Virus record (IMG/VR): IMGVR_UViG_3300037461_000986
Span: 1 to 64,000 of that record
Strand: one strand, 5' to 3'
DNA: 64,000 nucleotides
Source: a virus
Part shown: piece by piece, positions 36,031 to 63,549 of the stretch
Numbering within the stretch: the first letter of the stretch is position 1
How the letters are laid out: every line of letters starts with the position of its first letter
Notes under the pieces: generated by a model
Seen by the model: only the letters and a program-made list of their open reading frames with translations
What the model was told of the DNA's origin: nothing
Databases searched by the model: none
Position numbers and translations under genes: made by a program

Positions 36031-39000
36031 CTACTCCGTGATGCGTACTTTGGTGCTGCCGGCGGTCGCGCGCACGGCGTCGATCCAAACGTACTGCCCG
36101 GCCCCGGGCGTCTCGCCGAACAGCCCGAAGGCGCCCGGCAAAATGTGATTCGTATCGACCGCGGTGGCGACGCCCGCGTGCGCGCCGCTCATGGTCAGGG
36201 TGATGGTGCTGCCGGTCGCGGCCAGCTCAAGCGTGACGACCGCGCTCGCCGTGTAGGTCACGGCCTCGGTGGTCAGCACGGAGACCTGCTGCACGCCCGC
36301 GCCGTCGCGGTAGTAACGCGCGATGACCAGGTTGGCCGTGGCGGCCCCCGTACAATGCAGATAGCCCGCATAGCCGTGCGCCAGGCCTAGGCCCGCGAAC
36401 GCCCACTGGAGGCGCGTGAACAGGCCCACCTTGCCGCCCGACGGGGCCTTGACCTCCGCCAGCACGGCGCAGTCCCGCAGGTAGGGATAGGCGATCCAGC
36501 GCTCCCAGCCGACCTGGTCACAGCGCGCCTGATTCGACGAGATGTTCCAGCCGTTGCCGGTCTGGATGATGACGTCCCAATTGCTGCCGAGGTTGGCGTC
36601 GTCCCCGCGCGTGAACGTGTCGCTGTAACGGAAGGTGCCGCGCGCCGAGACCTGCCCCGATGTCGGGTCGCGGTCGCCGATGAGCAGCGCCCCCTGCGGA
36701 AAGGGCGCCTTGGTGTAGCGCGCCTTCCAGAGGCGGTCCATCTCGAGCGTCTGCGGCTCGGCCCACCAGCCGCCGCCGTGCAGGATGACGCTCGCGGGCG
36801 CGATCCAGGTGGCGGGCGTCATGCGCGAGGCCATGATCTCCCAGCCCTCGGCCCAGCCGTTGCGCACGACCAGCCCGCTGCCGATGCCCGCGTGATTCCA
36901 GATCTCGATCTGGATCGGCGTGTCGAACCGGCTTAGCGCGGTGTCGCGGATGTACCCGCCCCAGTAGCAGGGCACGTCTATGCTGTCCATATCCTCGCCT
37001 TGAACGCGCCACAGCCGCAGCACCGGCTCGGGCGTACTAACCGCAGTGCCGCGCACGTACTCGCGCTGGGCGCTCGAGGAGTTGACCGCCCACAACTCAA
37101 AATGGCTGCCCTCGTCACCGCCGATGGTGGCCAGCTTGACGTCGCTAGTCATCGAGATGAACGGCGCGGCCGGCAGCCAGTCCAGTTGCAGCCGGAACCA
37201 GCGCGGGTCGAGCGCGTCCGCCCAGGTCGCCGTCTCGACCGCGCGGGTCGTGCCCGCGGGGCTCCAGCTCGACGGCCACAGCGTATCGACCTGCACCATC
37301 GGAGCATCGACGAGCATGCCCTGCGCTTGCCGATAACCCCGCACGTATAACCGCAACTCGTCCTCGGTGTAGTCCGGACGCGCCATGGCAAGGTTGACGG
37401 CCGCATGGTCACGCCACCACCACTGCGGTGGGTGCATGTAATAAGTACGCACGCGACGCGTCGTAATAATGCCTGCACCGCTGTCGCCCGGCGCGATGTT
37501 GAGGCGTGCGTACATAGCGGACTGCGTGGCCGGCGCTACAGTATCCGCGCGCACGCTCCAACTCATGTTCGCTTTGTCCCACGCGCCGACATCAATATGG
37601 CTGTTTAGCGTCACATAGCCGTAGTTGTAATCGGCCGGCCGCCCCATCTCGTCATCGGCCACGTAGTGCGCGTAAAAGCCGCGCATATTATTTCTATCGG
37701 TTTCATCCGTCCCATCCGACAGCCGCTCGAGCCCGCCGAACAGCATGTGTACGTATTTGCCCAACGTTGAGTCATAGGTGCGCACGCCGCGCCAGTAGCG
37801 GAACGGACGAATCCACTCCTCGTCCCCGGCGTAGTCTTCGGGGTCGCCGTCATCGGACAAACCCGCCTGGAGCACGTGGTTCTCGACCGCATCGAAACCC
37901 GCGCCGTTCCAATGGATGCTCCAGGTCGAGTGATACACGTCCCCGCTGCCGACGTGCTCGCCGCCATAGAACCAGACCGTATCCACGCCGTCGTAGACCA
38001 CCGCGCAGTGCATAATCGAAGGCGGCTTGCCCGGTTCCGTGTCATCGAACGCGCCGGGGTCCACGTCGTACTCGTCCAGGGATCCATCGCTGGGATCGAA
38101 CACGCGCACGCGCAGGCCCAGCTCGCCGTCATACGTCCCGCCGACGAGTACGATCATGCCGTCCAGGTCGCCGCCCGAGCAGAAGGCGGAGCCCATGCCG
38201 TAGTCGGCATCGCCCAGCAGATCGGAGCCCACTTCGGTCAAGGTCTCGGCCGTGCAGTTCGCCTTGTGCACCTTGGGCGTGTCCGCCGCCGCACCCCGAC
38301 CGCCAAAGATATAGAGGTTGCCATTCGCATGATCGAGGCAAGCACCCGCGTCCTCGAGTGAATCTGTATGAGTCGTAAGAGGAGTTGGCGTCCAAACCCC
38401 AACACTGAGTGTGTACTTCACAAATACCGCACTCGTCGGAACATCTTTATCGCCCAAACCCACGAGATAAATTACGCTCGTCGGAGTCGACTTACCAAGA
38501 CGCCATTGCTTATGTAATGAAAACTGAGTCCAAGATGCACCCTCGAAAAGAAATACAGGGTCGCTCACTAAATCGCACGAATACACACGAAGTTCACTAG
38601 CTCCAGTCTCACCTTCCGCACGCGCCGCCAGCACGACGCTAGTGGTTGCTCCATGTATAAATACGATATCGGCGCCACCCTCTTCATCATACCGATCTGG
38701 CTCCGGCAACTCCATGGTCACGTCGATGCTCGCGCGCACCGGCCGACCCGTACTGAGCATGTGCTTCTCCGCGGACGTGCTCGCCGCGAGGATCGCCCTC
38801 GAGCGGCTCCAATACTGCGGCCGATAACCGTCAGCGGTAATTGTTGACCACTCCTCGAACTCGGAGTTGGGCACCTGGTTGTCGCCCACCTCGTGCTCGA
38901 TGAGCACCGCCGCCTTGCGCTCCGTGAGCCCGCCCTGCGCCACGAGGGCCATGGCGATGATGTGATCGAAGTTGTAGTCGGAGGCGGACTTGTAGGTCTC

Positions 39001-40053
39001 CAAGTCCGACGTGACGACCTGGCCCGACACCTTGTTGTGCTCGCCGACCATCGACACGCAAGGGATGCCGCCGTTCTCGGTCTGGCTCAGCGTCGAGAGG
39101 TACGAATGCCAGTGCGGCCGCCAGCGCGACCGGAAGTAGTTCACCCACAGGTCCGGGTTCGGCCCCTCGTGCACGCGCCGCGCTTGCACCGCGCGCAGCA
39201 GGCGCCAGATCGTCCAGTCCGCCCAGAGCTTCTCATAATCATCTTCACCCAGATTGCGGAAGCACCGGTCACGCGACACGTAGCGCGCGCCGTCACCCGC
39301 CGTGGCGTGCTGGTCGAGCGCCCACGCAATCGGACGCGGGTCGCCGCCGTTGTACCGCCATGCCTCCATCGCCGTTGCCTCGAGGCAGCAGGTGATGGGC
39401 GCGTCGCCCTTGCTCTCGCCCGCCGTCGGAACGAACTCGTCCCAATACCAGGGCCAGACGCGATTGAGGTTGATGCCCGTATCGACGCCGCTCGGATGCG
39501 GGCCGAGCAGGTTGATGTTGCGCTGGCCAAGGTAGTAGCCGTCCGGGTTGCAGCACGGCATGAAGACGATGTTGAACTGGTTCCGCAACGGCGCGAAGTC
39601 GTCGTGCGTCATCAGCAACTCGAACGCCTTGAGCGTGCCGAGTACGCCGTCCGGCTCGTTGCCATGGATCAGCGTATCAACTAGGAAATACTCGGGCGCA
39701 TCGATCATATAGGTGAGCAGCTCGAGCGGGCGGCCGTCCTGCGATAGGCCATCCCCGCAGGCGATACGCTGAAAGCCGCTGACGCCCGCCAGCGCCGCCT
39801 CGAGGGTATCAAGCTCATCAGTATAAACGTGCGTCTGCTCGCCAACGCGGTCGTAGCAACCGATCTCATTGGAATACCGCACGAATCCCTGGGATTCCGA
39901 GAAGCGGTGATAGATGGGAATGTTGCCGACGCTGGCCAGAATGCGGTCTGCCTGCACGCGCGGGGTGTTCGGCCCCACGGGCCTGCCCGAGATGGGGCAC
40001 CACGCATCGGAGGCGCGCGAAAAGGCCATTTGCTCAAACGTGAGCCGCTTCAT
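36031..40053 (-). CDS. M14 zinc-carboxypeptidase domain fused to a Kelch-like propeller and a ConA-like C-terminal domain (1340 aa)
   Basis: The start was re-set to ATG 40053 (MKRLTFEQ...), which overlaps the upstream stop as ATGA. M14 motifs appear in order: LIHGNEPDG (HxxE, 39655-39666), VFMPCCNPDGY, GINLNRVW, ALDQHAT, VGEHN. Four hhhhGG blade motifs follow (LYIFGGRG, MIVLVGGTYDG, VWFYGGEHVG, HMLFGGLERL). Confidence 0.8.
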   Translation of the reverse strand: MKRLTFEQMAFSRASDAWCPISGRPVGPNTPRVQADRILASVGNIPIYHRFSESQGFVRYSNEIGCYDRVGEQTHVYTDELDTLEAALAGVSGFQRIACGDGLSQDGRPLELLTYMIDAPEYFLVDTLIHGNEPDGVLGTLKAFELLMTHDDFAPLRNQFNIVFMPCCNPDGYYLGQRNINLLGPHPSGVDTGINLNRVWPWYWDEFVPTAGESKGDAPITCCLEATAMEAWRYNGGDPRPIAWALDQHATAGDGARYVSRDRCFRNLGEDDYEKLWADWTIWRLLRAVQARRVHEGPNPDLWVNYFRSRWRPHWHSYLSTLSQTENGGIPCVSMVGEHNKVSGQVVTSDLETYKSASDYNFDHIIAMALVAQGGLTERKAAVLIEHEVGDNQVPNSEFEEWSTITADGYRPQYWSRSRAILAASTSAEKHMLSTGRPVRASIDVTMELPEPDRYDEEGGADIVFIHGATTSVVLAARAEGETGASELRVYSCDLVSDPVFLFEGASWTQFSLHKQWRLGKSTPTSVIYLVGLGDKDVPTSAVFVKYTLSVGVWTPTPLTTHTDSLEDAGACLDHANGNLYIFGGRGAAADTPKVHKANCTAETLTEVGSDLLGDADYGMGSAFCSGGDLDGMIVLVGGTYDGELGLRVRVFDPSDGSLDEYDVDPGAFDDTEPGKPPSIMHCAVVYDGVDTVWFYGGEHVGSGDVYHSTWSIHWNGAGFDAVENHVLQAGLSDDGDPEDYAGDEEWIRPFRYWRGVRTYDSTLGKYVHMLFGGLERLSDGTDETDRNNMRGFYAHYVADDEMGRPADYNYGYVTLNSHIDVGAWDKANMSWSVRADTVAPATQSAMYARLNIAPGDSGAGIITTRRVRTYYMHPPQWWWRDHAAVNLAMARPDYTEDELRLYVRGYRQAQGMLVDAPMVQVDTLWPSSWSPAGTTRAVETATWADALDPRWFRLQLDWLPAAPFISMTSDVKLATIGGDEGSHFELWAVNSSSAQREYVRGTAVSTPEPVLRLWRVQGEDMDSIDVPCYWGGYIRDTALSRFDTPIQIEIWNHAGIGSGLVVRNGWAEGWEIMASRMTPATWIAPASVILHGGGWWAEPQTLEMDRLWKARYTKAPFPQGALLIGDRDPTSGQVSARGTFRYSDTFTRGDDANLGSNWDVIIQTGNGWNISSNQARCDQVGWERWIAYPYLRDCAVLAEVKAPSGGKVGLFTRLQWAFAGLGLAHGYAGYLHCTGAATANLVIARYYRDGAGVQQVSVLTTEAVTYTASAVVTLELAATGSTITLTMSGAHAGVATAVDTNHILPGAFGLFGETPGAGQYVWIDAVRATAGSTKVRITE

Positions 40054-41414
40054 AGTGGATTCGCCCCTCGCGCAAGGTCGCGCATGCGCGCGGAAAGCGC
40101 GCGCGCTGTAGCTCGGTTGATGCGGTTGGTGCCGTAGGCGACCCGCGAGATCATGCACTCGGCGGGCGAGCCGTCCGTCGCGCTATTGCCGATGATGAGC
40201 GTGCCGGGCGTGGGCGTCTGCGGATACCACGTCGCCGGATTGAACGCGCCGTCTAGGCGCTCGCCGTTGACCCAGAGCGTGGCCTGCGTATCGGTATTCA
40301 CCTCCTCCCAGGTCGCCACGATGCCCAGCGCCGCGAAGTCGTCCCACGAGGTCGGCCCATCGAGGAACGCGAAGTTCGTCCCGGACGTGTCCCCGAGCGT
40401 GACCACCACGCGGTCGTAGGTGTCGCTCATGGACACGCGCAGGCGCCATGTATCGCAATCGAGGTTGAGCATGCCCAGGAAGCGGTAGTTCGCGTTGCCC
40501 GCGTTGTCCGTGTGCCCGCGATCCGTCGAGCGGTCCGGCAGCACCACGCTCATCGCCAGCCACCCGCTCGGGCGCAGGCAGACCTCGGCCACCGAGGACC
40601 GCACGGCGTACTCCAGGCGCGAGTCGGCGCCGAAGCCCGCGCGCGTGATGCGCTCCGAGCCGGTGTACTGATTGAAGAACCCCGGGAACGCGAACTCCCA
40701 CTTGCCGTTATCGGCCACCACGGCGATCGAGCCGTAGCCGGTGGTCGAGGCGTTGTTCGGCACTAGGATGCTGAGCGCCCACCAACCGTCGTACCCGAGG
40801 CTGCGATAGACCGGGGTCGAGGTGGCGCGCGTGCCGGCCGTCGCGTTCCAGCCGAGCGTCACGATGCCGGCCGGGTCCTCGGTGCCGCTCTCCCCGCGCA
40901 CGAGCACCTGGAACTGCCGCAGGTAGGTCGCACTGCGCGCCTGGGACTTCTCCACGACGCAGTCATTGACCGCGTCCAGCGAGCTGTCGAGGTACACCCG
41001 GCGGCGGCTCGTGGCGATGTCGGGATCGCGTGCGATGCTCGGGAAGTCCGCGCCATCCTCGCTGAGCTGGCTCGCGTCCGTCGGCGCCACCACCGCGTAG
41101 TTGTACTTCGAGGTCCCATAGCCAACGTGATAGTTGGCGTTGGTCATGTAGAACGCACCGACGCTGCCGAGGCAGCGGTCCTTGCCCGCGGCCGTGTCGA
41201 TGCCGTCGGTCATGAACGTCCACTGCTTGTGGCTGTTCATGATGAGCCACTTGGCGGTGCTCGCCCCGCTCGCCGTCTCGTAGACCTCCGCGAGCATGGG
41301 GCCGCCCGCCTTCGCCGGCCCGACCGCCTGCTGCGCGCGGAGCGCGTCCCAGTAGAAGCGCGGGCGCAGCCGCAGGATCGCGCTCGCCCCGGCGCCTACC
41401 AGGCCGCCCATCAT
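40050..41414 (-). CDS. LamG-like lectin-domain protein
   Basis: The start was re-set to ATG 41414 (MMGGLVGAG...), an ATGA overlap with the upstream stop. The C-terminus TLWVNGERLDGAFNP....GTLIIGNSATDGSPAECMISRVAYG is a LamG signature. Confidence 0.65.
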   Translation of the reverse strand: MMGGLVGAGASAILRLRPRFYWDALRAQQAVGPAKAGGPMLAEVYETASGASTAKWLIMNSHKQWTFMTDGIDTAAGKDRCLGSVGAFYMTNANYHVGYGTSKYNYAVVAPTDASQLSEDGADFPSIARDPDIATSRRRVYLDSSLDAVNDCVVEKSQARSATYLRQFQVLVRGESGTEDPAGIVTLGWNATAGTRATSTPVYRSLGYDGWWALSILVPNNASTTGYGSIAVVADNGKWEFAFPGFFNQYTGSERITRAGFGADSRLEYAVRSSVAEVCLRPSGWLAMSVVLPDRSTDRGHTDNAGNANYRFLGMLNLDCDTWRLRVSMSDTYDRVVVTLGDTSGTNFAFLDGPTSWDDFAALGIVATWEEVNTDTQATLWVNGERLDGAFNPATWYPQTPTPGTLIIGNSATDGSPAECMISRVAYGTNRINRATARALSARMRDLARGANPL

Positions 41415-47778: not shown

Positions 47779-48714
47779 TCAGGCGGTGCGAACGTGGGTG
47801 ACCTTCACGACGGCGTCTTCTTCCTGCCAGTTGCAGCCGACGCGCAACGTTGCGACCGCGATCCACTCGCCGGTCTGGACGTCGTAGTCGGTGTTGATTT
47901 TGATCTTGCGCCACACGCCCCAGATGAAGTTCTTCGGGTGCGTGTAGATGATGTTCGTGCAGCTGCCGCCGTTCAGGTTGTCCGGGAACACGGGGATGGG
48001 CATGATCGGGCGGCCGCCGTAGCGCAGGGCGTCCATGGATTCCAGGAACCGGTCGCCGAGCACTGTGGCGCGATCCGCCAGGTAATCCCGGTAATCGATC
48101 TCGGCGTCCTCGGAGGTCCAGAACTCCTGCTTGTTGCGCAGGCGGTTGTACTGCGACGGCATGGCCTTCACGGCGGACTTCAGCACGCCCTTGTGGATCG
48201 GCACGGTGCCGCCGTTGACGGTGTGCGAGCTGGTCAGGGCCAGCATGCCGTTGAACTGCGCGAGGAACGCGTCGGCCGACCCGGTGCTGCCGTTGACGGC
48301 CAGCTCGTCGGAGTCGAGCGCGATGTGCTCGGAGAACATGCTCATGATGGTGTTCTTGAACGAGCCGCCCTCGATGTTGTCCTCGAGGTACTCGTCGGTC
48401 AGCCGGATCTCGGCCTTCATGAGCTTGGTCTCGATGGTGACCTGCTCGGTCGTCGGCTCGACGCGCTCGGTCAGCGTGAGGGCGCGGCCGCTCTGGGCGG
48501 GGCGCAGCACGCGGCCGCTGATGCCGACCTTGGGCAGCACGGTCGTGTGCGACATCATCGGCTTGACCGTGACGCTCTTCAGCACGACCGACTCCTTGAT
48601 GTAGTCGGTAATGAATGAGGAGGCGACCTCGTCGGGGAGGTAGCCGCCGTTCGATACGAGGTCGGCGACCTCGGCATCGGCCTTTTGGATGATGTTCAGA
48701 TTGGACTCGGCCAT
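47779..48714 (-). CDS. major capsid protein, HK97 fold
   Basis: 311 aa. ..LMKAEIRLTDEYLEDNIEGGSFKNTIMSMFSEHIALDSDELAVNGSTGS..FLAQFNGMLAL.. fits the HK97-family capsid pattern. It follows the protease and scaffold genes. Confidence 0.85.
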   Translation of the reverse strand: MAESNLNIIQKADAEVADLVSNGGYLPDEVASSFITDYIKESVVLKSVTVKPMMSHTTVLPKVGISGRVLRPAQSGRALTLTERVEPTTEQVTIETKLMKAEIRLTDEYLEDNIEGGSFKNTIMSMFSEHIALDSDELAVNGSTGSADAFLAQFNGMLALTSSHTVNGGTVPIHKGVLKSAVKAMPSQYNRLRNKQEFWTSEDAEIDYRDYLADRATVLGDRFLESMDALRYGGRPIMPIPVFPDNLNGGSCTNIIYTHPKNFIWGVWRKIKINTDYDVQTGEWIAVATLRVGCNWQEEDAVVKVTHVRTA

Positions 48715-52082: not shown

Positions 52083-55000
52083 TTAGTGTGGCACATAATG
52101 GCCGCGCAGCGCGGAAATCATAAAGGCAACCTGGTCGGCGGCCACCTCCCAGTTCTTCCCGATCTCAGCGGCGCTGCTAAGCCGCTCGACTGCTGTCGAC
52201 AGGAACTCGGTATTAGTTCGCGTATCGTACTCGTCGATGGACGCAGGCGTTTGATAGTCCTTGGCCTTCAGCGGCTTGCCCAGATTCTTGATCAATGCCT
52301 TTGCTTCTTCGCCATACACTTTCGCATCGTACCGATCCATGAACGCACCCGGTAACGCGTATTCGTCCTCGGTGCCTCCCTTGCCGTAAAGGGAAATGTC
52401 GCCCTTGAGCAGGTTATCGACATCACGCGCAAGACGGTTGCGCACAATGCGGGCGGCCACGCCGTTCTTTCCAACGCGATCGACGAGGTGCGCGCCCTCG
52501 TGCTTCAACACACGGCGGCCCGCGACCGCCGCTCGCCCGCTTTGCCCTGATAGCGTCCGCTCGTAGTTATCTGGCATGGAGATAAAGGCGCCCTCGCCGT
52601 CCTCTCCGAATAATACCAGCCGGCGCTTCATGAATCCTCGCCGCCATTGGAGGGATCGATAGAACCGCGGCGCGCCCATTGCGGCAACCGCCTGAACTAC
52701 AGGATCGGAACAATGCTGCAGGGCGAAGTCGAGCGCCTTGCGGGCCGTCTCCCCGCGCTGCATCTCGAGTGACCCCTTGATCTTGTCAGACACCGTGGCA
52801 CGGTCGGCGGCCGTCTGGGCCGCTACCTGTGCCGGCGTCATCTTGGCCGTGCGGTCGACCAGCACGTCGCTAGGCTTGGCCTTGGCCGCGCCCTCCTTCA
52901 CGATCTTCGTAATGATCTGGCCCTTTTCCGCCGTCTTCAGCGCGCGGCCGAGCCGCTCCTCTTCTTTGCGGATGCGCCCCTGGACTTCATCGCGAACGAT
53001 TGCCAACCGCTTGTCGACCTGCTCATGCACGGGCACGCCAGGGATCAAATTCCGTTGGTTCCAATCGATGCGCGCCTTGGGATACGCCTGGCGCACGTCG
53101 GTGAAGAGTTCGACGCCAAGCTTCGCGAGCTTCTCTGCATTGCCCGTCTGGATCCACGCATCGGCAACGCGCGTGAATACATCCGTCGGCACCTTGCCAA
53201 GCACGGCGCCGTCGATGCGCAGGAACACCGCATTGCCCTCGTGGTCATTGACCACCCAGTCGCGCTTGCCAGCCAAGTTCGAGGCGACCTCGGCTTCGAG
53301 GGCCGAGACGAGAAACCGCCGGCTCGCTGGAAATCGTGGGTTTACGAGCTGCGTTGCGGTGACGTTGACGACATGGTCCGACGGCTGGGGCCGGATGACG
53401 CGCAGCGAGGTTTGGAACGTGACCGCCTTGTCGCTCAACGCGGCCCACTCGGACCGCTTCACCGGCACGCCGTTGGCATCAACGGTGGCACTCGACCAGA
53501 CGGCGTGCTCTTGTTTCCACTGCGCCTTGGTAATGATGGCCCCGTCGGGCCGCGCAGCATAGAGTTGCGCCCCGATGGGTGCGTCCTTAAGCGCGCCGGT
53601 CAAACGCGGTCCGGCCGGTTCCTCCAAGGGCGACGGCCCAGCATTCGGCTTTGTCCCAGTCTGCGGCTGCGCGCCGGTCGTGCGCGGCTTGGCCAAGGGA
53701 CTACGCGCGGGCAGACCACTCGTTCCCATGGTCACGCGCGCGGTTGCCGGGTTGCTCACCGCGTCCACGGTTTTACCAATCCGCACAGCGCCCGCGAGCT
53801 CGGCGATGCGCAGCAACTCCTCAGCCGCTACCTGGGCCTCGGCGGGCGTCGTGGCTAGGCGCACAGCCATGGCGGCATCGGCCATCGCCTTGGTCATGCG
53901 CCCAGTGAAGCGCGCCCAGATCGTCTCGCCCTTGGTGTCCACCATCTGCACGAGACGCGACCGACCTGCCGAGGCGGGATTTGCCACGAGCGCACCAAGT
54001 GCCGCGCGACTACTCGATTGCGCGGTGAGGTGCATGACCGCATGACCAGGAGTTGCAAACAGGCCCGGGTTCGTCGCGAGTTCGTCTATTTGCGCGCGCG
54101 CCCAGGGGGCAGCCTCATCGAAGCCGCGCGTCATGGGATCAGAGCCCATAGTGCGCACGCCATACACCTCGGCCGAGGCACCTATAGCGCGCCGCGTTCC
54201 AGCATCAGGCGCCTTCCACCTGGGCAGGCCGTAGTCGTCGACCGGAGTGAGGGTGCCGGTGACTACGGGCTTACTCGGCGTCGGCATCTTGAACTGCTCC
54301 AACGCGCCGAAGGAAGTCCAATCGCCATTCTCGGATGGAGCCGGGCCGACCGCGCGCATCGCACTGCCTTTCGGCACTTGCGCGACATCCATGCGCGGCA
54401 CCAACGTCGTGCGGCAGTTGTGGTGGTAGGGCGGCGCGCCGACATTGGCACCATTGAAGCCTGCCCCGGCGACGAATTGTTGCGCGCGACCGCGGTCGTC
54501 CACATTGCCCGAGCCCTCGCGCTCGAAGCGCCCGAGTAGGGTCTTGCCCGCGTGGATCTCCATGGCGCCTTGATCGTTGCGCGTCTGTCGTAGGAAGGGC
54601 GCGACCTTGCCGATGTCCTCCGGGGTCGTCACCGCCGCCGCACGATTCGCAAGATCTAACGCGCCGGCAATGGGAATCACTTGCCCGTCCATCAGGCGGC
54701 AGTTGTGCACCACCACCGTCTCGGCCACGTAGGTCGGGTCATCCTGCACCTCGAGGTTGTAGACGTCGTACATGCCATCGGCGAACACGTCGACCTCGGT
54801 GACCAGCACGTTCGCGCAGCGCTCGGCGTAGGCGCTGGCAGGCAGCTCGGCCCACGGGTCTGCCTGCTCGCCGCGCCGCCGCAGGTACTCGGTATAGAAC
54901 CACGCGACCTCGCGCGGGGGGCGCGTCGAGCGATGGCGCGTCGAGACGACGTCGCCACTGCACAGGGCGCCCGCCGGCTGCCACCCATGCCGCGTGAGGA

Positions 55001-56201
55001 ACGGGTGCTCCTCGGTGACGTAGAGCTGCCGCCCGGATGAGGTGCGCACGCGCACGATCGAGTGGACCAGCCGCTTGCTGCGCTTGAGGACGGTCCCGAG
55101 AAAGCCGAAGCCCGTGACCACCTTGTCGCCCGGATGGATGAGTTCGATGGCGCGCTCGCCCGCCTCGGTCAGGATCTTGGTATTCCCTAAAAAGCAGATG
55201 TCGGTGGTGCGTTCGTCGAGCATCGCCACGACCTCCGCGTACTCGATGCCGCCCTCGGCGTAGGTACTCAGCTCGGCGTGGCTGCGCGCGCGCGCCAGGC
55301 CGTTCGCGGCCACGGTGTGCGCGTAGCCCTTGCCCATGCCCTGCCACAGATCCGGGAGTTGTTTACGGAGATCGTCGGCGACCTCGGCCCGTCCGAGTCC
55401 CTGCGCGAAGCCGGCCGCGACGATCTTGCGCGCGCGCAGGGTGAGCGCGTCGTTGCGCTGGCCGTCCATGCCGCGCACGAACCAGCTCTGCTGCGCCACG
55501 AGGCGTTCGACAGCGGCGACCTGCGGCGCGCTGATGTCGATCTCGACCGCGCCCAGAAAGCGGTCCTTGACGCTGCCGCGCGTGCCCTGCGCCATACCCT
55601 TAAAGTGCGGATCGGCTGCGTCCATCCACGCCCGGTCCAGGCCCCGCTGCTCGGTGCGCAGAGCGGCGGCCGCGCGCTTGAGCTCGTCCGCGGAGTTCTC
55701 TTGTGTAACGTCTTGGAGGCGGTCCACGAACCGGTCTACGGCGGGCAGGCCGGCCGCGGCATCGGCGGCCGCGAGGTCGGCGGCCGCGCGCCGGGTCAGG
55801 CCCTTGAAGTCGTCCGGCCGAAACGGGTCGAGCTTTGCTTTGAGGATCACGCCGGTCGGCGCAAGGATCTCCGGGCTCGGCGTCGTCGAGAAGCGATCGG
55901 TGGCGGCCCACAGGATGCGGCCGTCCGCGCGCACGCGCGCCCCCTGGTAGAGCGTGACCGCCTTCGCCCCCTGCGCGCCCAAGTCCGCGACGCATGCCAG
56001 GGCATCCCGATGGCCCGAGACCGGCAGGCGCCAGCGCTGCGCGCGCTCGAGCCGCACGGCCCACAGCGGAAGCGTCCCCTTGGCAATCGCCGCGCTCCCT
56101 ACCCCTCCGTACGCCGCCGCCGCCGCCGCGTCGCGCCCGAGATCGACTAGCGGCCAGAGCAGGGCGTAATCGCCCGCCGGATGTCGGAAGAGGGGGGTCA
56201 C
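52083..56201 (-). CDS. MuF / SPP1 gp7-type head morphogenesis protein, polyvalent form (1372 aa) with an intein and a C-terminal HExxH module
   Basis: The start was set to GTG 56201, which overlaps the upstream TGA as GTGA. The MuF core is ..ARSHAELSTYAEGGIEYAEVVAMLDERTTDI[intein]CRLMDGQV...APPYHHNCRTTLVP. A ~720-aa extension follows, ending with ..RRVLKHEGAHLVD.. (HEGAH at 52488-52502). Confidence 0.8.
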   Translation of the reverse strand: MTPLFRHPAGDYALLWPLVDLGRDAAAAAAYGGVGSAAIAKGTLPLWAVRLERAQRWRLPVSGHRDALACVADLGAQGAKAVTLYQGARVRADGRILWAATDRFSTTPSPEILAPTGVILKAKLDPFRPDDFKGLTRRAAADLAAADAAAGLPAVDRFVDRLQDVTQENSADELKRAAAALRTEQRGLDRAWMDAADPHFKGMAQGTRGSVKDRFLGAVEIDISAPQVAAVERLVAQQSWFVRGMDGQRNDALTLRARKIVAAGFAQGLGRAEVADDLRKQLPDLWQGMGKGYAHTVAANGLARARSHAELSTYAEGGIEYAEVVAMLDERTTDICFLGNTKILTEAGERAIELIHPGDKVVTGFGFLGTVLKRSKRLVHSIVRVRTSSGRQLYVTEEHPFLTRHGWQPAGALCSGDVVSTRHRSTRPPREVAWFYTEYLRRRGEQADPWAELPASAYAERCANVLVTEVDVFADGMYDVYNLEVQDDPTYVAETVVVHNCRLMDGQVIPIAGALDLANRAAAVTTPEDIGKVAPFLRQTRNDQGAMEIHAGKTLLGRFEREGSGNVDDRGRAQQFVAGAGFNGANVGAPPYHHNCRTTLVPRMDVAQVPKGSAMRAVGPAPSENGDWTSFGALEQFKMPTPSKPVVTGTLTPVDDYGLPRWKAPDAGTRRAIGASAEVYGVRTMGSDPMTRGFDEAAPWARAQIDELATNPGLFATPGHAVMHLTAQSSSRAALGALVANPASAGRSRLVQMVDTKGETIWARFTGRMTKAMADAAMAVRLATTPAEAQVAAEELLRIAELAGAVRIGKTVDAVSNPATARVTMGTSGLPARSPLAKPRTTGAQPQTGTKPNAGPSPLEEPAGPRLTGALKDAPIGAQLYAARPDGAIITKAQWKQEHAVWSSATVDANGVPVKRSEWAALSDKAVTFQTSLRVIRPQPSDHVVNVTATQLVNPRFPASRRFLVSALEAEVASNLAGKRDWVVNDHEGNAVFLRIDGAVLGKVPTDVFTRVADAWIQTGNAEKLAKLGVELFTDVRQAYPKARIDWNQRNLIPGVPVHEQVDKRLAIVRDEVQGRIRKEEERLGRALKTAEKGQIITKIVKEGAAKAKPSDVLVDRTAKMTPAQVAAQTAADRATVSDKIKGSLEMQRGETARKALDFALQHCSDPVVQAVAAMGAPRFYRSLQWRRGFMKRRLVLFGEDGEGAFISMPDNYERTLSGQSGRAAVAGRRVLKHEGAHLVDRVGKNGVAARIVRNRLARDVDNLLKGDISLYGKGGTEDEYALPGAFMDRYDAKVYGEEAKALIKNLGKPLKAKDYQTPASIDEYDTRTNTEFLSTAVERLSSAAEIGKNWEVAADQVAFMISALRGHYVPH
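54702..55196 (-). other. mini-intein (165 aa, Hint domain, no endonuclease) inside the MuF domain
   Basis: It begins CFLGNTKILTEAG (block A). It has VTEEHPF (block B, TxxH). It ends DVYNLEVQDDPTYVAETVVVHN, followed by a +1 Cys. Removing it restores the contiguous sequence DERTTDI-CRLMDGQV. Confidence 0.8.
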
Positions 56202-56491
56202 TTGTCCCCCACTAGGCGCGGCACGCCGGTATGAATAATGAACCACCGTCCGCAGCGCCGGCAGGTCCCAGCCCCGCAATGGATCGGCGTGAGCAGGTTC
56301 GGCGCGTCGGCATACCCGGTCGCCACCTGGGCCGTGAACTGGAGCGCGGCGCACGCCGGACAGCGCAGGATGGCCACGGGGCCGCGCTGTACGATGTCGC
56401 CGGACTCTAACGCGCCCGCCGCATAGGCCGCGCCCAGCGACGTGACGTCCGCCCGCAGGCGATAGCGGGCAATGCGCAGGGCGTCAGGCAT
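56198..56491 (-). CDS. small zinc-ribbon protein (Com-like arrangement)
   Basis: 97 aa with CPAC...x24...CGAGTCRRCG. Confidence 0.55.
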   Translation of the reverse strand: MPDALRIARYRLRADVTSLGAAYAAGALESGDIVQRGPVAILRCPACAALQFTAQVATGYADAPNLLTPIHCGAGTCRRCGRWFIIHTGVPRLVGDK

Positions 56492-57210: not shown

Positions 57211-57570
57211 CTATTTGAAAACGCCGAGTCCGGCGGCCACCGCCGCGATGAACAGGTGATCCTTGGCCTTCTGCGCCTCCGGCAGGTCTGCATATGGAAC
57301 CATGCACGGATGCTCTTTGAGGTCTGGATCCTTGACCGGGCCGTACTTCCACCCGTCGGCTACCTTCTGCTCGAGCCAGGATACGTGTGAGTCCTCTGGC
57401 TTCATCTCGGGATTAGCCTCGATGTTTTTAACTCCCATAATCGCGCTGTACTGCTGCCACTCGGGCGCGTCCTCCCACGCGGGCTGCGACATATCGCCCA
57501 GCAACGCGCAGTACAAGCGATTGACCTCATGCGCAAAGCGCGCGACCTCGATGGCATACTCTTTCGTCAT
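57211..57570 (-). CDS. RyR-domain protein
   Basis: The start was re-set to ATG 57570 (MTKEYAIEVARFAHEVN...), preceded by AGGGAG. HVSWLEQKVADGWKYGPVKDPDLKEHPCMVPYADLPEAQKAKD matches the RyR-domain signature (H..W....GW.YG...D...K.HP..VPY..L.E..K..D). Confidence 0.7.
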   Translation of the reverse strand: MTKEYAIEVARFAHEVNRLYCALLGDMSQPAWEDAPEWQQYSAIMGVKNIEANPEMKPEDSHVSWLEQKVADGWKYGPVKDPDLKEHPCMVPYADLPEAQKAKDHLFIAAVAAGLGVFK

Positions 57571-57580
57571 GGTGCTCCCT

Positions 57581-58060
57581 TTATGATGGCGGTGTGACAA
57601 AGTACGGCTCGACCCACTCGCTGAAGCTGGCCACACTCTCGGAGGCGCAGAGCGGCCGGACGCAGGCGGCGCGCCCGCTCGCCCGCAGCCCGCGGTCCGG
57701 GCCGACCACGATCTGCGTGACCAGCTCATCGTAAAGCGGGAACGTAACCGGGTGCACCAGCGTGCCGCCGACGGTCGGGCCGAGCGCGTACACGCCGAGC
57801 GCGCGCGCAATCTGCCGCAGCGCGTCGGTCGCCACGAGCGCGTCCGTGCGCTCGTTCCACGCGGCGCTGAACGTGATGATGCGCGGACCACCTTCGTATG
57901 TGATCGTCTGCGTCCACCGCGCCACGTTGATGAAGTCGCCACCACCGCCGTCCGGCCGCGGGACGATCGGTTGCGCGTAGGCCTCCATGCCCAGCGCCAC
58001 CGTGAACGTGTCGCCGTTGCAGTTGCTCACCAGGAAGCTGCCGAGGACGGGCGGGATCAT
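57581..58060 (-). CDS. hypothetical protein
   Basis: 159 aa. ATGA overlap with the upstream ORF. Confidence 0.55.
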   Translation of the reverse strand: MIPPVLGSFLVSNCNGDTFTVALGMEAYAQPIVPRPDGGGGDFINVARWTQTITYEGGPRIITFSAAWNERTDALVATDALRQIARALGVYALGPTVGGTLVHPVTFPLYDELVTQIVVGPDRGLRASGRAACVRPLCASESVASFSEWVEPYFVTPPS

Positions 58061-58341
58061 GACGCCCTCGACGGGTCGTCAGTGCGCAGCACCGGCCGGT
58101 AGCCGTTGCAGTCGAGGCGCGGCATGCAGCGCTCCGGGATGATGTCGCCCTCGCGCCGCGCGAGGTAGGCCGCGGCGGGCGAGATGCAGTAGTAGCCCGC
58201 GCCGTCGGTCTTGGTGATGATGACGTCCGCCCACGGATTCGTGATCGGATCGTGCTCGGGGCCGAGCCGCCAGCGCGAGCCCACCTCCAGCGTTCGATAC
58301 GGCCCCATGCTTTTTGTTTCGAAGCACAGCGGTAGCGTCAT
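58057..58341 (-). CDS. hypothetical protein
   Basis: This is the credible C-terminal part of track ORF 58057..58878. ATG 58341 (MTLPLCFETKSMGPYRT...) overlaps the portal stop as ATGA. The upstream part of that track ORF is antisense-like junk lying inside the portal gene. Confidence 0.5.
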   Translation of the reverse strand: MTLPLCFETKSMGPYRTLEVGSRWRLGPEHDPITNPWADVIITKTDGAGYYCISPAAAYLARREGDIIPERCMPRLDCNGYRPVLRTDDPSRAS

Positions 58342-60212
58342 GGTTCCTCGCCCTCCATCGCGCGGGTATCGCGCAGCGTGACGCGGAGCGCGTCCGCGTG
58401 CCCGGCCTCGACCAGCTCCTCGGTCAGGATGCGCGCGATGCGCTCCTCGAGCTTGGTGAGCTTCTGCTCCATGGCGAACTGGGTCTCGTACTGCGGCACG
58501 CCCGCGCCCGGCTGGTACCCGGCGAGCGTGAGCGGGAGCGGCTGGTTCGCCCACTCGGGCGGCACGTGGTCCACCGGCAGGTTGAGCACGTCGGCGGCGA
58601 GCCGCTGGATCTGCGCCGGGGTCAGGCCGCCGTGCGGCGCGACCTGCGCGACGAACGTGCCGACCTGCTCCGCACTGCGCGTGGGCGGCGTGTTGGATTG
58701 GAAGCGCAGGAACCGGATGCCCAGCTCGGGCAGGATGACCCGGTTCATGACATTGTCGAACGCCTCGCGGAGCGGCTGATAGACCTGCTGCTCGGTGAAG
58801 TTGAGCACGGCCTCGGCCGTCGCGCGGTTGAGGTTGTCGGGCGTGTAGCCGCGCATGAGCGGCGACTGCCGGAAGCACGCACCAATGATGTTGGCCGCCC
58901 GGGTGTCGTACTCAAGGAACATGGCGTCTTGGGTCTGCGCGTCGCGGAAGCTCTGGAAGGTGATGGTCGGCAGCATTGAGCGCTCGCCGGTCACACCGCG
59001 CGAGGCCAACGCCTCGACCACGAGGAATCGTGAGGTGTTCTTGCTGCCCTGCATCTCGGTGCGCAGCCGGTGCTCGAGCCGGGCCTTGACGTCCTGCTTG
59101 ATGGACCCGCCGGACACGAACAGCATGCCGCCGACGAACATCTTGTTCCGCAGGTGGTAGTAGTTCGTCTCGTTGGCCTCGCGCGTGCCGAGCACGTTGA
59201 GGATGGCCGGCGCCCAGCGCGGCGGCGAGCACGGAGACTTGGCGTAGTGCGGCGCGAAGAACAGCAGCTCGTTGGCCGGTAGCGCGGTCGGCCCCTCCTC
59301 CGCCTTGAGCGCGCGCGGCGTCGGAAAGAACTTGCCGGACTGGAGGCTGACGGTGCGCGGGTCGCCCGGGCTCTTAAAGAAGACGACGCGCCCGTCCACG
59401 TTCTGCACGTAGCGCCGCAGCCGGCGCCAGGTCTTCATCTCCCGCCCTTGCGATAGCACAGTGATGTTGTCGTCCTCGATGACCTCGACCGCCTCGTCGA
59501 AGTTCGCCACCGGGCGCACGGTGTAGCCCTGGACGTAGGCCAGGCGCCGCAGCCGCTCGTCCGAGTCGCGAATCATCTCCATGCAGCCCCAGCCGCTGGA
59601 CTCCACATCGATGCGTACCGCTTTGCGCAATTCGACGAACGAGCGGTCCGAGCAGCAGTTCGCAAACCACGAGTCGAAGCGGAAGTGCTCGCGCCGCAGC
59701 CGGCGGCCGATCATGTCGACCACCTCGTTGATGTCCTCGTCGGTGGCGTCGGGGGGCTCGGGCGTATCCTGGCCGACCGGGGTCGTCAGGTCGAGGTCGA
59801 ACCAGCGCTCGTACTCGAGCGCCTCCCGGATGGCCTCCCGGGCCTCGTCGCTCTCCAGGTCGGTCATCCAGTTAGCGATCGGCACGCCGGTATAGCCGAA
59901 GCCGTCGATGTTCTGGGCATAGCCGTCGATGTTCGGGCCGAGGTGCGGGCACAGCTCCACGAAGTTCAACATCGCGGCCGGGTCCCACGGCGTATCGCAG
60001 GCGCCCTGGGCATCCCAGGCCGCGGCGCTGTCGGCCATGGTCTGGAGCGCGGTCGCCTCGTTGATGGTGGCGTCCACGGCAACCGCGGCCTTGGCCAGCA
60101 GCTCGCGCGTGCGCACGGGCTCCGCGGTGTCCAGGCCGAACACGCTCACGCCCGCCTCGCCCGCGCCGCCGCGCTTCCCGCGCTTGTGCTTGGTGATGGT
60201 GTCGTCGGTCAT
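58338..60212 (-). CDS. portal protein
   Basis: 624 aa, of typical size and position. ..FFAPHYAKSPCSPPRWAPAILNVLGTREANETNYYHLRNKMFVGGMLFVSGG.. resembles the conserved core of P2 Q/PBSX-type portals. Confidence 0.8.
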   Translation of the reverse strand: MTDDTITKHKRGKRGGAGEAGVSVFGLDTAEPVRTRELLAKAAVAVDATINEATALQTMADSAAAWDAQGACDTPWDPAAMLNFVELCPHLGPNIDGYAQNIDGFGYTGVPIANWMTDLESDEAREAIREALEYERWFDLDLTTPVGQDTPEPPDATDEDINEVVDMIGRRLRREHFRFDSWFANCCSDRSFVELRKAVRIDVESSGWGCMEMIRDSDERLRRLAYVQGYTVRPVANFDEAVEVIEDDNITVLSQGREMKTWRRLRRYVQNVDGRVVFFKSPGDPRTVSLQSGKFFPTPRALKAEEGPTALPANELLFFAPHYAKSPCSPPRWAPAILNVLGTREANETNYYHLRNKMFVGGMLFVSGGSIKQDVKARLEHRLRTEMQGSKNTSRFLVVEALASRGVTGERSMLPTITFQSFRDAQTQDAMFLEYDTRAANIIGACFRQSPLMRGYTPDNLNRATAEAVLNFTEQQVYQPLREAFDNVMNRVILPELGIRFLRFQSNTPPTRSAEQVGTFVAQVAPHGGLTPAQIQRLAADVLNLPVDHVPPEWANQPLPLTLAGYQPGAGVPQYETQFAMEQKLTKLEERIARILTEELVEAGHADALRVTLRDTRAMEGEEP

Positions 60213-61944: not shown

Positions 61945-63549
61945 CTATAGCAGATAGCCGCCGCTCTCCGCGCCCACATTGAGACGGATCTCATCTTCAC
62001 CGCCGGTCGCCCAGGCGTCAAGGAAGTACCGCCTTGCGGCGTCGAGCGCCTGGCTGAAGGTATCCACTAGGTCGTCGTGCTTGCCGAACGGGAAGTCCAG
62101 CAACTCGCTCACGAGGTCGCCGCGGCCGGGCATCCAGGCCGGGTCGTCACTGTTGAGCGTTCTCGAAAAGATGACCTCGCCGCGCTCCATGAGGGGCGTC
62201 ACCGCGATGAGGCGCTGCGCCTTGCTTACGCGCGGCTTCGTCACCTCGATGATGCCGGCCAGGGCGGGCTCAATATTGAGCACCCACTCGTCCAGTGAGG
62301 CCTGCCCTACCTTCTCGATGAGCACGCGCAGCGGGTTGTACTTCCGGTGTTCCTTGATGACCTGCTGGGCCATGACGTTTAGCGTCAGGCGCGCGGCCCA
62401 GCTATCGATGACGTACACGCGGCGGGCATCGGCATCTACCGCGATCGTGCAGCTCGCAGAGTAATCCTGGTCGGCGTTGCCCGTCGGCGAGCCCGCCGTG
62501 TCGTAGCTCGTAAAGAACACGAGGTGGCCGCCGGCCAGGCGGTCGGCAAAGATCGGGTCGCGCGCGAGGTCGGAGAACTTGATCCAGCGATCGCGCACGA
62601 TCGCCGAGTCCTCATCGACGGGGTTATTACGGAAGCCCCGGTTGAACTCGATGGACTGGATCTCCTGATAGCGCGCGCGCAGGTTCGCCTCGCTCCACTT
62701 CTCCGGCCACATGGCGCCGAAGGCGTGGTCGATGGCGTAGAAGTAGGTCGCAAACGCAGGGTTGACCATGAGCTGGTGCGAGAGGTCGTCCTTGTGCCAG
62801 AGCGTACAGATGTACCAGATGCGCGAGTCGGGCTCGAGCAAGTTCGTCCAGTCGCTCTTCCATGCCTGCTTGATCTGCTCGCGCAGCGCCGGGAAGGACA
62901 GGGCGTTGCGGCGGTCCACGGCGTCGTCCGCGATGAGCAGGTCCGCACGGCCGCCCGTAGCCGTCGAGGTAATACCGAGCGCCTCGATGCTGGCATCCCT
63001 ATGGAACGCGCTACGCTCGACGATGATCTTGTGCTTCGACCACTCGCCCCGCTCCGCCTGCACGAGGCGCGGAAAGACCTCGCGGATGCGCGGGTTGTAC
63101 TCCAAGTGCTGCACCACCTCGAAGAGCCGCTCCTTCGCGCGGCCATCGCTCGCGCACGCTATCTTGATGCGCAGGTTCGGGTCGCGCCCGAGCTCCCAGA
63201 GCGCGCGCCCAATAATCTGCGACGTCTTGCCGTGGTCGCGCGGCGCGATAATGAGCACGCGGCCGCCCGTATCCATGGCCGTGCTCCACTCATCGTGGAA
63301 CCACTGCTGGGCGAACGGCCGCCCCGTATGCGAGTCCATGAAGCAATACTGCATGAAGGTCGGGAAGTGCTCGCGCGCGCGCCGCCGATGTACCTCTTGC
63401 AGGGCACTGAGCCGCAGGCGTAACTCTTCCGCGCTGGCCTCGGGCGTGCGCATGTTCGCCGGCCCGATCATCTCGTCGAGATAAACGAGGTGCTCCTGCG
63501 GCGGTCGGTAGCGCGCATCAAGATGCCCGATCTGATCGAATGCGTTCAT
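61945..63549 (-). CDS. terL: terminase large subunit
   Basis: 534 aa. Walker A-like IIAPRDHGKTS and Walker B-like DLLIADD. The nuclease half has FFTSYDTAGS and the C-terminal GKHDDLVDTFSQAL typical of terminase large subunits. Confidence 0.9.
   Translation of the reverse strand: MNAFDQIGHLDARYRPPQEHLVYLDEMIGPANMRTPEASAEELRLRLSALQEVHRRRAREHFPTFMQYCFMDSHTGRPFAQQWFHDEWSTAMDTGGRVLIIAPRDHGKTSQIIGRALWELGRDPNLRIKIACASDGRAKERLFEVVQHLEYNPRIREVFPRLVQAERGEWSKHKIIVERSAFHRDASIEALGITSTATGGRADLLIADDAVDRRNALSFPALREQIKQAWKSDWTNLLEPDSRIWYICTLWHKDDLSHQLMVNPAFATYFYAIDHAFGAMWPEKWSEANLRARYQEIQSIEFNRGFRNNPVDEDSAIVRDRWIKFSDLARDPIFADRLAGGHLVFFTSYDTAGSPTGNADQDYSASCTIAVDADARRVYVIDSWAARLTLNVMAQQVIKEHRKYNPLRVLIEKVGQASLDEWVLNIEPALAGIIEVTKPRVSKAQRLIAVTPLMERGEVIFSRTLNSDDPAWMPGRGDLVSELLDFPFGKHDDLVDTFSQALDAARRYFLDAWATGGEDEIRLNVGAESGGYLL

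Follow-up and report, generated by a model that had tools for sequence, protein, structure and literature searches.

Inteins residing in MuF-type head-morphogenesis proteins have already been recorded in several groups of phages. An intein-containing capsid morphogenesis protein is mentioned for Jerseyvirus phages (Salmonella UPWr_S; PMC8425127), the GenBank record of Escherichia phage Snoke (MK931441) is annotated with an 'intein-containing capsid morphogenesis protein' and the respective mat_peptide features, and a preprint (bioRxiv 10.1101/2025.01.02.630785) names the minor capsid protein (IPR006528) among the new hosts of inteins in actinophages, the endonucleases being of the LAGLIDADG type and encoded antisense. 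In this study we analyzed a MuF intein encoded by positions 54702-55196 of a 64,000-nucleotide stretch of viral DNA (IMG/VR record IMGVR_UViG_3300037461_000986, positions 1 to 64,000; the whole stretch is referred to as the window). A previous sequence-only reading of this DNA considered MuF to be an unusual host for an intein, a view which the above annotations and reports contradict. MuF is a known intein host, but the insertion point found in the window appears to be undescribed, although frequent in metagenomic phages.

Comparison with the known MuF inteins

The MuF domain contains two conserved motifs, D-E-R-T-T-x-x-C-R-x-x-D-G (first motif) and PPxHxxCR (second motif). A tblastn search of 50,697 phage records (INPHARED) with the window segment revealed MuF-type genes, annotated as head-morphogenesis, minor-capsid or MuF, in Jerseyvirus, Kagunavirus, Pantoea phage AH01 and the Gordonia phages Barsten and SchottB; these second-motif MuF inteins and unrelated inteins of portal, terminase and helicase genes were the only matches. 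In the four proteins inspected, the intein is located within the second motif (^ denotes the insertion point): PPAHPN^C...HN^CRST in phages sidste, Snoke and AH01, and HEVIN^C...VHN^CRC in Barsten. In all four the first motif is intact. The window presents the opposite arrangement, with an uninterrupted second motif (PPYHHNCR) and the intein placed approx. 90 extein residues further upstream, at DERTTDI^C.

The Jerseyvirus, Kagunavirus and Gordonia inteins share with that of the window the same host domain (Phage_Mu_F/IPR006528), encoded just downstream of the portal gene, and insertion right before an invariant Cys in one of the two conserved motifs. They differ in their second-motif location (HxN^C) and large size and, in the case of Gordonia phages, in the antisense LAGLIDADG endonuclease reported in the preprint (bioRxiv 10.1101/2025.01.02.630785). 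The similarity between these inteins and the one analyzed here is weak (33-38% over approx. 80 aa, E 1e-3 to 3e-5).

No description of the DERTTxx^C insertion point was found in the literature or records searched, and Kelley et al. 2016 (PMC5050341) make no mention of MuF or minor capsid proteins. When P0086 and P0054, stand-alone MuF proteins whose inteins are located at the first motif, were used as tblastn queries, no match was obtained among the 50,697 phage records, and these searches revealed no example of the site in cultured phages.

Identification of a class-1 mini-intein

The intein and the surrounding MuF gene are encoded by the minus strand: the reverse complement of 54702-55196 specifies exactly 165 residues (CFLGNTKILT...VTEEHPF...VVVHN), while the plus strand of the same segment contains stops. 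A single uninterrupted open reading frame (ORF) of 1423 codons, 52083-56354 (-), encloses the intein in frame. The residues located directly N-terminal of the intein are ...AEVVAMLDERTTDI (ending MLDERTTDI), and the C-terminal flank starts with CRLMDGQVIP. The true start of the gene is probably GTG 56201, which would make the product 1372 aa long and place the intein at residues 336-500. This start was preferred because (i) the alignment with an 81%-identical homologue, P0003, starts at codon 52 of the ORF, (ii) there is a GTGA overlap with the stop codon of the upstream ORF, preceded by GGGGGA, and (iii) the P0003 gene shows the same 4-nt overlap. The 165-aa insertion, its CFLGNTKILT start, VTEEHPF segment and VVVHN end followed by Cys, as well as its position between the flanks DERTTDI and CRLMDG of the conserved MuF motif, had been proposed in the sequence-only reading, and the minus-strand translation agrees with each of these points.

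Scanning of the isolated segment with profiles specific for the N- and C-terminal parts of inteins, an approach suggested by the same reading, gave scores above the cut-offs for TIGR01445 intein_Nterm (34.4 bits vs 24.5) and TIGR01443 intein_Cterm (23.9 bits vs 15.6), as well as for Pfam Hint_2 (39.8 bits vs 28.4). An alignment of 16 mini-inteins located at the motif revealed that residues C1, F2, T61, H64, W72 and N165 are invariant, and that D153 and H164 (and Y156) are nearly so. In class-1 inteins, C1, TxxH, D153 and HN represent blocks A, B, F and G. All of the class-1 features proposed from the sequence are therefore present and conserved: Cys at position 1, T61-E-E-H64, and VVVHN followed by Cys+1. 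Class-3 inteins, in turn, lack a nucleophile at position 1 and contain a Trp-Cys-Thr triad (blocks B, F and G); assignment to this class does not fit an element with Cys1, with a block G ending in HN before Cys+1 and with no conserved block F Cys.

The profile built from homologues of this site matches the splicing domain of the Mtu RecA intein PI-MtuI end to end (8e-20). The AlphaFold2 model of the intein (predicted score in the local distance difference test [pLDDT] 92.4, predicted template modeling score [pTM] 0.86) pointed in the same direction, since its best PDB neighbours in a Foldseek search were structures of the Mtu RecA mini-intein (probability 1.00, TM 0.81). The target TM reached 0.87 among the best neighbours (Mtu RecA, gp41-1 and DnaB mini-inteins; probability 1.00). 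With E <= 1e-3 as the threshold, 67 structures in the PDB matched, and every one of the 50 among the matches listed has the HINT fold (inteins, bacterial intein-like [BIL] domains, hedgehog). The Mtu RecA mini-intein (PDB 2IMZ, 5I0A) is thus both the best sequence-profile match and the best fold match, and shares with the window's intein a class-1 HINT domain with Cys1, TxxH, terminal HN and Cys+1. It differs in its host (RecA) and in sequence (approx. 23% identity), and its endonuclease was deleted in the laboratory, whereas the intein of the window is naturally endonuclease-free.

Between the splicing halves the model holds just two short helices (residues 94-109 and 120-124), which confirms that the element is a mini-intein. 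The absence of LAGLIDADG and HNH segments, on which the sequence-only reading had based this assignment, extends to other nuclease families, none of which was found in the 165-aa segment with Pfam and NCBIfam. The endonuclease profile derived from larger relatives (see below) matched neither any of the six frames of the intein nor any other part of the 64-kb window. The presence of an endonuclease remnant on either strand of the intein was also considered and rejected: at 68% GC (guanine plus cytosine), long ORFs on the antisense strand and in the alternative frames are to be anticipated, and those observed bear no similarity to the endonuclease of the relatives.

The MuF host domain and the splice junction

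Excision of the intein rebuilds the MuF signature, as had been predicted. The score of Pfam Phage_Mu_F (PF04233) rises from 21.2 bits for the unspliced protein, i.e. below the cut-off of 29.6, to 32.1 bits after conceptual excision. TIGR01641 scores 30.9 bits, under its cut-off of 39.65. The conceptually spliced protein matches phrog_115, phrog_241 and others, annotated as minor head or head morphogenesis proteins. The intact gene therefore falls below the Pfam cut-off, which illustrates that inteins can hide a domain from gene callers.

Word-index searches with the spliced and unspliced MuF segments returned one protein each, and an exhaustive search of representatives was therefore used. HMMER search with ORF residues 287-685 against 1.84 billion representatives yielded 4460 homologues, the best 150 of which were included in the junction analysis, with the N-extein, intein and C-extein aligned separately. 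Misalignment of intein-less homologues at the junction, which the sequence-only reading had named as an argument against an intein, was not observed: 97 of these 150 proteins are intein-less, with contiguous extein parts (gap 0) reading DERTTxx^CRxxDG. In a set of 30 intein-less homologues, residues D, T, C, R and G of the first motif and P, P, H, C and R of the second are invariant. The window's intein is inserted directly before the invariant Cys of the first motif, which becomes the +1 nucleophile, and conceptual splicing yields DERTTDI-CRLMDG.

The spliced MuF segment had no match in PDB at the sequence level, and its confident AlphaFold2 model (54255-55421 (-) minus the intein; pLDDT 83.7, pTM 0.81) had no significant PDB neighbour in Foldseek. 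The MuF fold thus appears to be structurally uncharacterised, and the interrupted Cys cannot therefore be assigned to a known active or metal site.

Selection on the intein, predicted splicing and alternative explanations

The ratio of nonsynonymous to synonymous substitutions (dN/dS; Nei-Gojobori method) was calculated for the window gene and that of P0003 (Logan contig L006), which carries a 164-aa intein at the same point; the 81% identity of this pair refers to the query segment. The value for both the N-terminal and the C-terminal splicing half was 0.19, compared with 0.57 for the intein linker, 0.09-0.15 for the MuF flanks and 0.21-0.34 for the C-terminal extension of the protein. The splicing parts are thus under purifying selection comparable to that acting on the host domain, with the linker relaxed. 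This is the pattern that should be expected of an active, endonuclease-free intein, splicing itself being predicted.

The predicted pathway is the standard class-1, post-translational one, with no departure from standard protein splicing. Cys1 would attack the peptide bond of Ile(-1) in an N-S acyl shift, the invariant extein Cys+1 would take over the N-extein by trans-thioesterification, and cyclisation of Asn165, aided by His164, would free the intein. An S-N shift would then generate the native peptide ...DERTTDI-CRLMDG..., and the restored invariant D-E-R-T-T-x-x-C-R would let MuF act in head assembly. We infer that splicing occurs and that MuF needs it; the splicing function would be kept by selection because unspliced MuF would be broken at an invariant residue.

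Several points weigh against this interpretation. Pfam Intein_splicing scored 34.7 bits on the isolated segment, just below its cut-off of 35.8, which larger inteins at the same site do exceed. The dN/dS values come from a single pair, as there was one close relative with available DNA. Finally, the presumed non-functionality of unspliced MuF is deduced from the invariance of the residue. Taking these points into account, we consider it highly probable that 54702-55196 encodes a canonical class-1 HINT-fold mini-intein without a homing endonuclease, located in frame inside the MuF (SPP1 gp7/Mu gpF-like) head-morphogenesis domain of a large virion protein and predicted to splice.

The loss of the endonuclease, the fast evolution of the linker (dN/dS 0.57) and the marginal Intein_splicing score might also suggest a decayed, splicing-dead HINT relic, either kept as an insertion in the mature protein or residing in a pseudogene. 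We regard this as improbable, since every catalytic position is intact and invariant in the family, the dN/dS of the splicing blocks (0.19) is near that of the extein (0.09-0.15), and the reading frame of the host gene runs unbroken through more than 1370 codons; moreover, a permanent 165-aa insertion splitting an invariant motif is unlikely to be tolerated.

Still less probable is a pretoxin-HINT or BIL autoproteolytic domain, which would cleave the protein and release its HExxH-bearing C-terminal part, so that the latter could serve as an effector delivered by the virion in the manner of MuF polymorphic toxins. Such domains do not lie within conserved motifs of the host protein, are typically followed by a variable toxin at the C-terminus, and cleave rather than splice. 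In favour of this possibility are the sub-threshold match to Pfam PT-HINT (25.2 bits vs a cut-off of 27.7), the presence of BIL domain structures among the fold neighbours and the approx. 800-aa extension with a conserved HExxH that follows the MuF domain. The HINT domain is, however, placed inside MuF and not between MuF and the extension, its excision restores the MuF profile and fits the 97 intein-less homologues (of the best 150) with gap 0, and stand-alone MuF proteins of approx. 500 aa that have no extension (e.g. P0029, P0054, P0069) contain the insertion as well. In addition, the full intein set of C1, TxxH, HN and Cys+1 is present, and the intein-specific NCBIfam models score above their cut-offs.

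The possibility that the resemblance is due to chance, or to faulty annotation of an ORF rich in GC (at 68% GC there are long ORFs in every frame), was ruled out by the profile, homologue-search and fold results, namely the profile E-values of 1e-8 to 1e-10, the confident fold model and conservation of the same frame in homologues from genomes of 42-68% GC, and we attach virtually no weight to it.

Intein insertion points in MuF proteins of uncultured phages

Analysis of the best 150 homologues revealed that the insertion found in the window is not an isolated case. At least 19 other clusters (50% identity) have an intein of 127-381 aa at exactly the same point (DERTTxx^CF...HN^CRxxDG), and these include short stand-alone MuF proteins. 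Seven IMG/VR viral contigs also carry an intein at this point. In at least 16 more clusters an intein of 173-412 aa is located three residues upstream (DExT^CF...VVHN^[S/T/C]xxCR), in which case the Thr/Ser of the motif serves as the +1 residue. The proteins with the upstream point (P0055, P0059, P0070, P0076, P0079-P0089, P0106, P0111 and P0127) contain inteins similar to that of the window. One of them, P0080, has two inteins, one of the upstream type and one at the second (HxxC) motif, and P0097 has an intein at the second motif only. MuF thus has three intein insertion points, and at each of them the intein is followed by a conserved nucleophile belonging to a signature motif.

The metagenomic DERTTxx^C inteins (P0002-P0008, P0014 and others; IMG/VR contigs L007-L011 and L013) share with the window's intein the insertion point, the CF... 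start and the ...VHN^CR end. Many of them differ from it in being 350-380 aa long and containing a nested endonuclease gene in the +1 frame, which the window's intein does not have.

A separate observation concerns P0002 (44% GC), whose gene call stops at a TGA codon (L005, 1483-1485) replacing the invariant Cys of the second motif (PPYHHL(stop)RT vs PPYHHNCRT), with homologous sequence resuming in frame past the TGA. Selenocysteine at this position was unsupported, as no downstream hairpin was detected (z = 0.43); the codon may reflect a sequencing error or recoding, or the gene may be a pseudogene.

An out-of-frame endonuclease in the full-size relatives

The in-frame central part of the large relatives is rich in R, G and S and has no domain match. 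We found that in all eight large inteins at the motif for which DNA was available, a conserved ORF of 255-313 aa is present on the same strand in the +1 frame. Six of these inteins are of the window's type (L005, L007, L009, L010, L011, L013) and two are of the upstream type (L054, L055), and the GC content of the inteins is 42-65%. Six of the +1-frame ORFs could be aligned (33-46% identity); they have in common zinc-ribbon repeats (CxxC...CSxxC), which are invariant, and the nuclease motif E...D...EVDGxYWH...K. Five or six of the six aligned members are matched by Pfam MTES_1575, DUF559 and Vsr (MTES_1575 all six), and the profile of these ORFs matches PDB 3R3P, the 'mobile intron protein' of phage 0305phi8-36 (6e-9). 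The latter is cited as a possible EDxHD homing endonuclease in the preprint (bioRxiv 10.1101/2025.01.02.630785).

Judging from these matches, the predicted homing endonuclease of this intein lineage is nested out of frame. The nuclease type is common to both insertion points, which argues for one lineage occupying the two. Inteins with out-of-frame or antisense endonucleases are also described in the preprint, where the cases listed have LAGLIDADG or VSR-like nucleases in antisense orientation or endonuclease VII-like ones in frame 3 (bioRxiv 10.1101/2025.01.02.630785). The full-size relatives of the window's intein resemble these in encoding the nuclease outside the intein frame, and differ from the cases listed there in that the gene is on the same strand in the +1 frame and combines zinc-finger repeats with an EDxHD/Vsr-like domain.

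The simplest reading of the window's intein is that of an endonuclease-free, immobile end state of this lineage, which would have shed the endonuclease that the full-size inteins of this site possess. Because of this loss, the element is most likely immobile and vertically inherited. Our tentative overall model, which we hold to be plausible but slightly short of probable, is that the MuF motif D-E-R-T-T-x-x-C constitutes an uncatalogued intein hot spot, occupied by a single lineage at two points nine nucleotides apart (before Thr/Ser and before Cys). The full-size members would be spread by the +1-frame zinc-finger and EDxHD/Vsr-like endonuclease, and the intein of the window would represent the endonuclease-free, vertically inherited end state.

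Genetic context of the intein-containing gene

The coordinates of the analyzed features are summarized in Table 1. The genes for the terminase and portal, two small ORFs, the MuF gene and the gene of a capsid-like protein follow one another on the same strand; this neighbourhood is a phage head module, with MuF after the portal as usual. Between the portal and MuF genes, an ORF at 57211-57945 (-) encodes a 244-aa protein with an RyR domain.

Table 1. Coordinates of the MuF-fusion gene, its predicted intein and neighbouring genes in the window, and of full-size inteins in related contigs.
Feature	Position	Strand	Evidence or remarks
MuF-fusion gene (host protein)	52083..56201	-	probable GTG start 56201; longest ORF reaches 56354
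N-extein part of Phage_Mu_F domain, ends DERTTDI (55197-55217)	55197..55421	-	Pfam Phage_Mu_F and TIGR01641 matches, ORF aa 312-388/394
Predicted class-1 mini-intein, 165 aa, ORF aa 387-551 (336-500 from probable start)	54702..55196	-	profiles, fold model
Cys1 codon (block A nucleophile)	55194..55196	-	C1-F2 invariant in 16 mini-inteins of DERTTxxC motif
Block B T-E-E-H (TxxH)	55005..55016	-	T61 and H64 invariant in mini-intein alignment
Block F DVYNLEVQDD	54738..54767	-	D153 and Y156 nearly invariant
Block G VVVHN (penultimate His, terminal Asn)	54702..54716	-	N165 invariant, H164 nearly so; TIGR01443 above cut-off
C-extein start CRLMDG; +1 Cys codon 54699-54701	54684..54701	-	C117 and R118 invariant in 30 intein-less homologues
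Second MuF motif PPYHHNCR, unoccupied	54411..54434	-	P, P, H, C, R invariant; intein site in Jerseyvirus/Kagunavirus/Gordonia phages
HEGAH (HExxH) in C-terminal extension of MuF protein	52488..52502	-	rHExxHxxDxxG-type motif in long homologues
Portal gene, upstream	58338..60212	-	phrog_12, 5.8e-14
Terminase large subunit gene	61945..63549	-	phrog_38, 2.1e-80
Virion structural (capsid-like) protein gene, downstream of MuF	47779..48714	-	same strand
Full-size intein locus, L005	124-1188		
Full-size intein locus, L007	910-1962		
Full-size intein locus, L009	3205-4260		
Full-size intein locus, L010	2462-3514		
Full-size intein locus, L011	3208-4320		
Full-size intein locus, L013	2014-3147		
Full-size intein loci, upstream type, L054 and L055			inteins of P0070 and P0059

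The GC content of the window is approx. 68%. The search of the 50,697 phage records for a close relative yielded nothing beyond a match of 39 nt, and there was no close relative among the GTDB species representatives, for which the single-protein search gave intein-only matches. The terminase is 24-27% identical to those of DSS3P8-type roseophages. The window represents a so far unsampled lineage of high-GC phages.

The C-terminal extension of the MuF protein (approx. 800 aa; 52083-54250 (-)) has no Pfam or NCBIfam match. An HExxH motif (consensus rHExxHxxDxxG) was found in 26 of the 51 homologues of at least 900 aa, and the extension may be a virion-packaged, metallopeptidase-like effector, as judged from this motif. 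Two other large ORFs were identified in the window. The first (24575-34798 (-)) encodes 3407 aa with a pectate-lyase-like Pect-lyase_RHGA_epim domain near residues 2841-3051, and its product presumably forms a tail fibre or spike that acts as a depolymerase. The second (36031-40158 (-)) encodes 1375 aa with a zinc carboxypeptidase domain (Peptidase_M14).

Significance

A natural 165-aa mini-intein with the Cys1/Cys+1 pair is a possible tool for protein engineering. The more interesting leads, namely the pair of neighbouring insertion points and the endonuclease encoded in the +1 frame of the full-size inteins, are located outside the window. As a purely speculative extension, the Cys1/Cys+1 pair is located at an invariant Cys that may bind metal or be catalytic, and splicing might thereby act as a timer of MuF maturation that responds to redox state or zinc.

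Phage inteins are usually biased towards the motifs of ATPases and DNA enzymes. MuF is a structural, non-nucleotide-binding phage protein, and the choice of this host runs counter to that bias. DERTTxx^C is the third documented insertion point in MuF, beside HxN^C and the neighbouring DExT^[S/T]. To our knowledge, no structure of the MuF domain has so far been solved and no chemistry described for it. Each of the three points lies before an invariant nucleophile of one or the other MuF signature motif, and the inteins therefore mark these residues as functionally critical.

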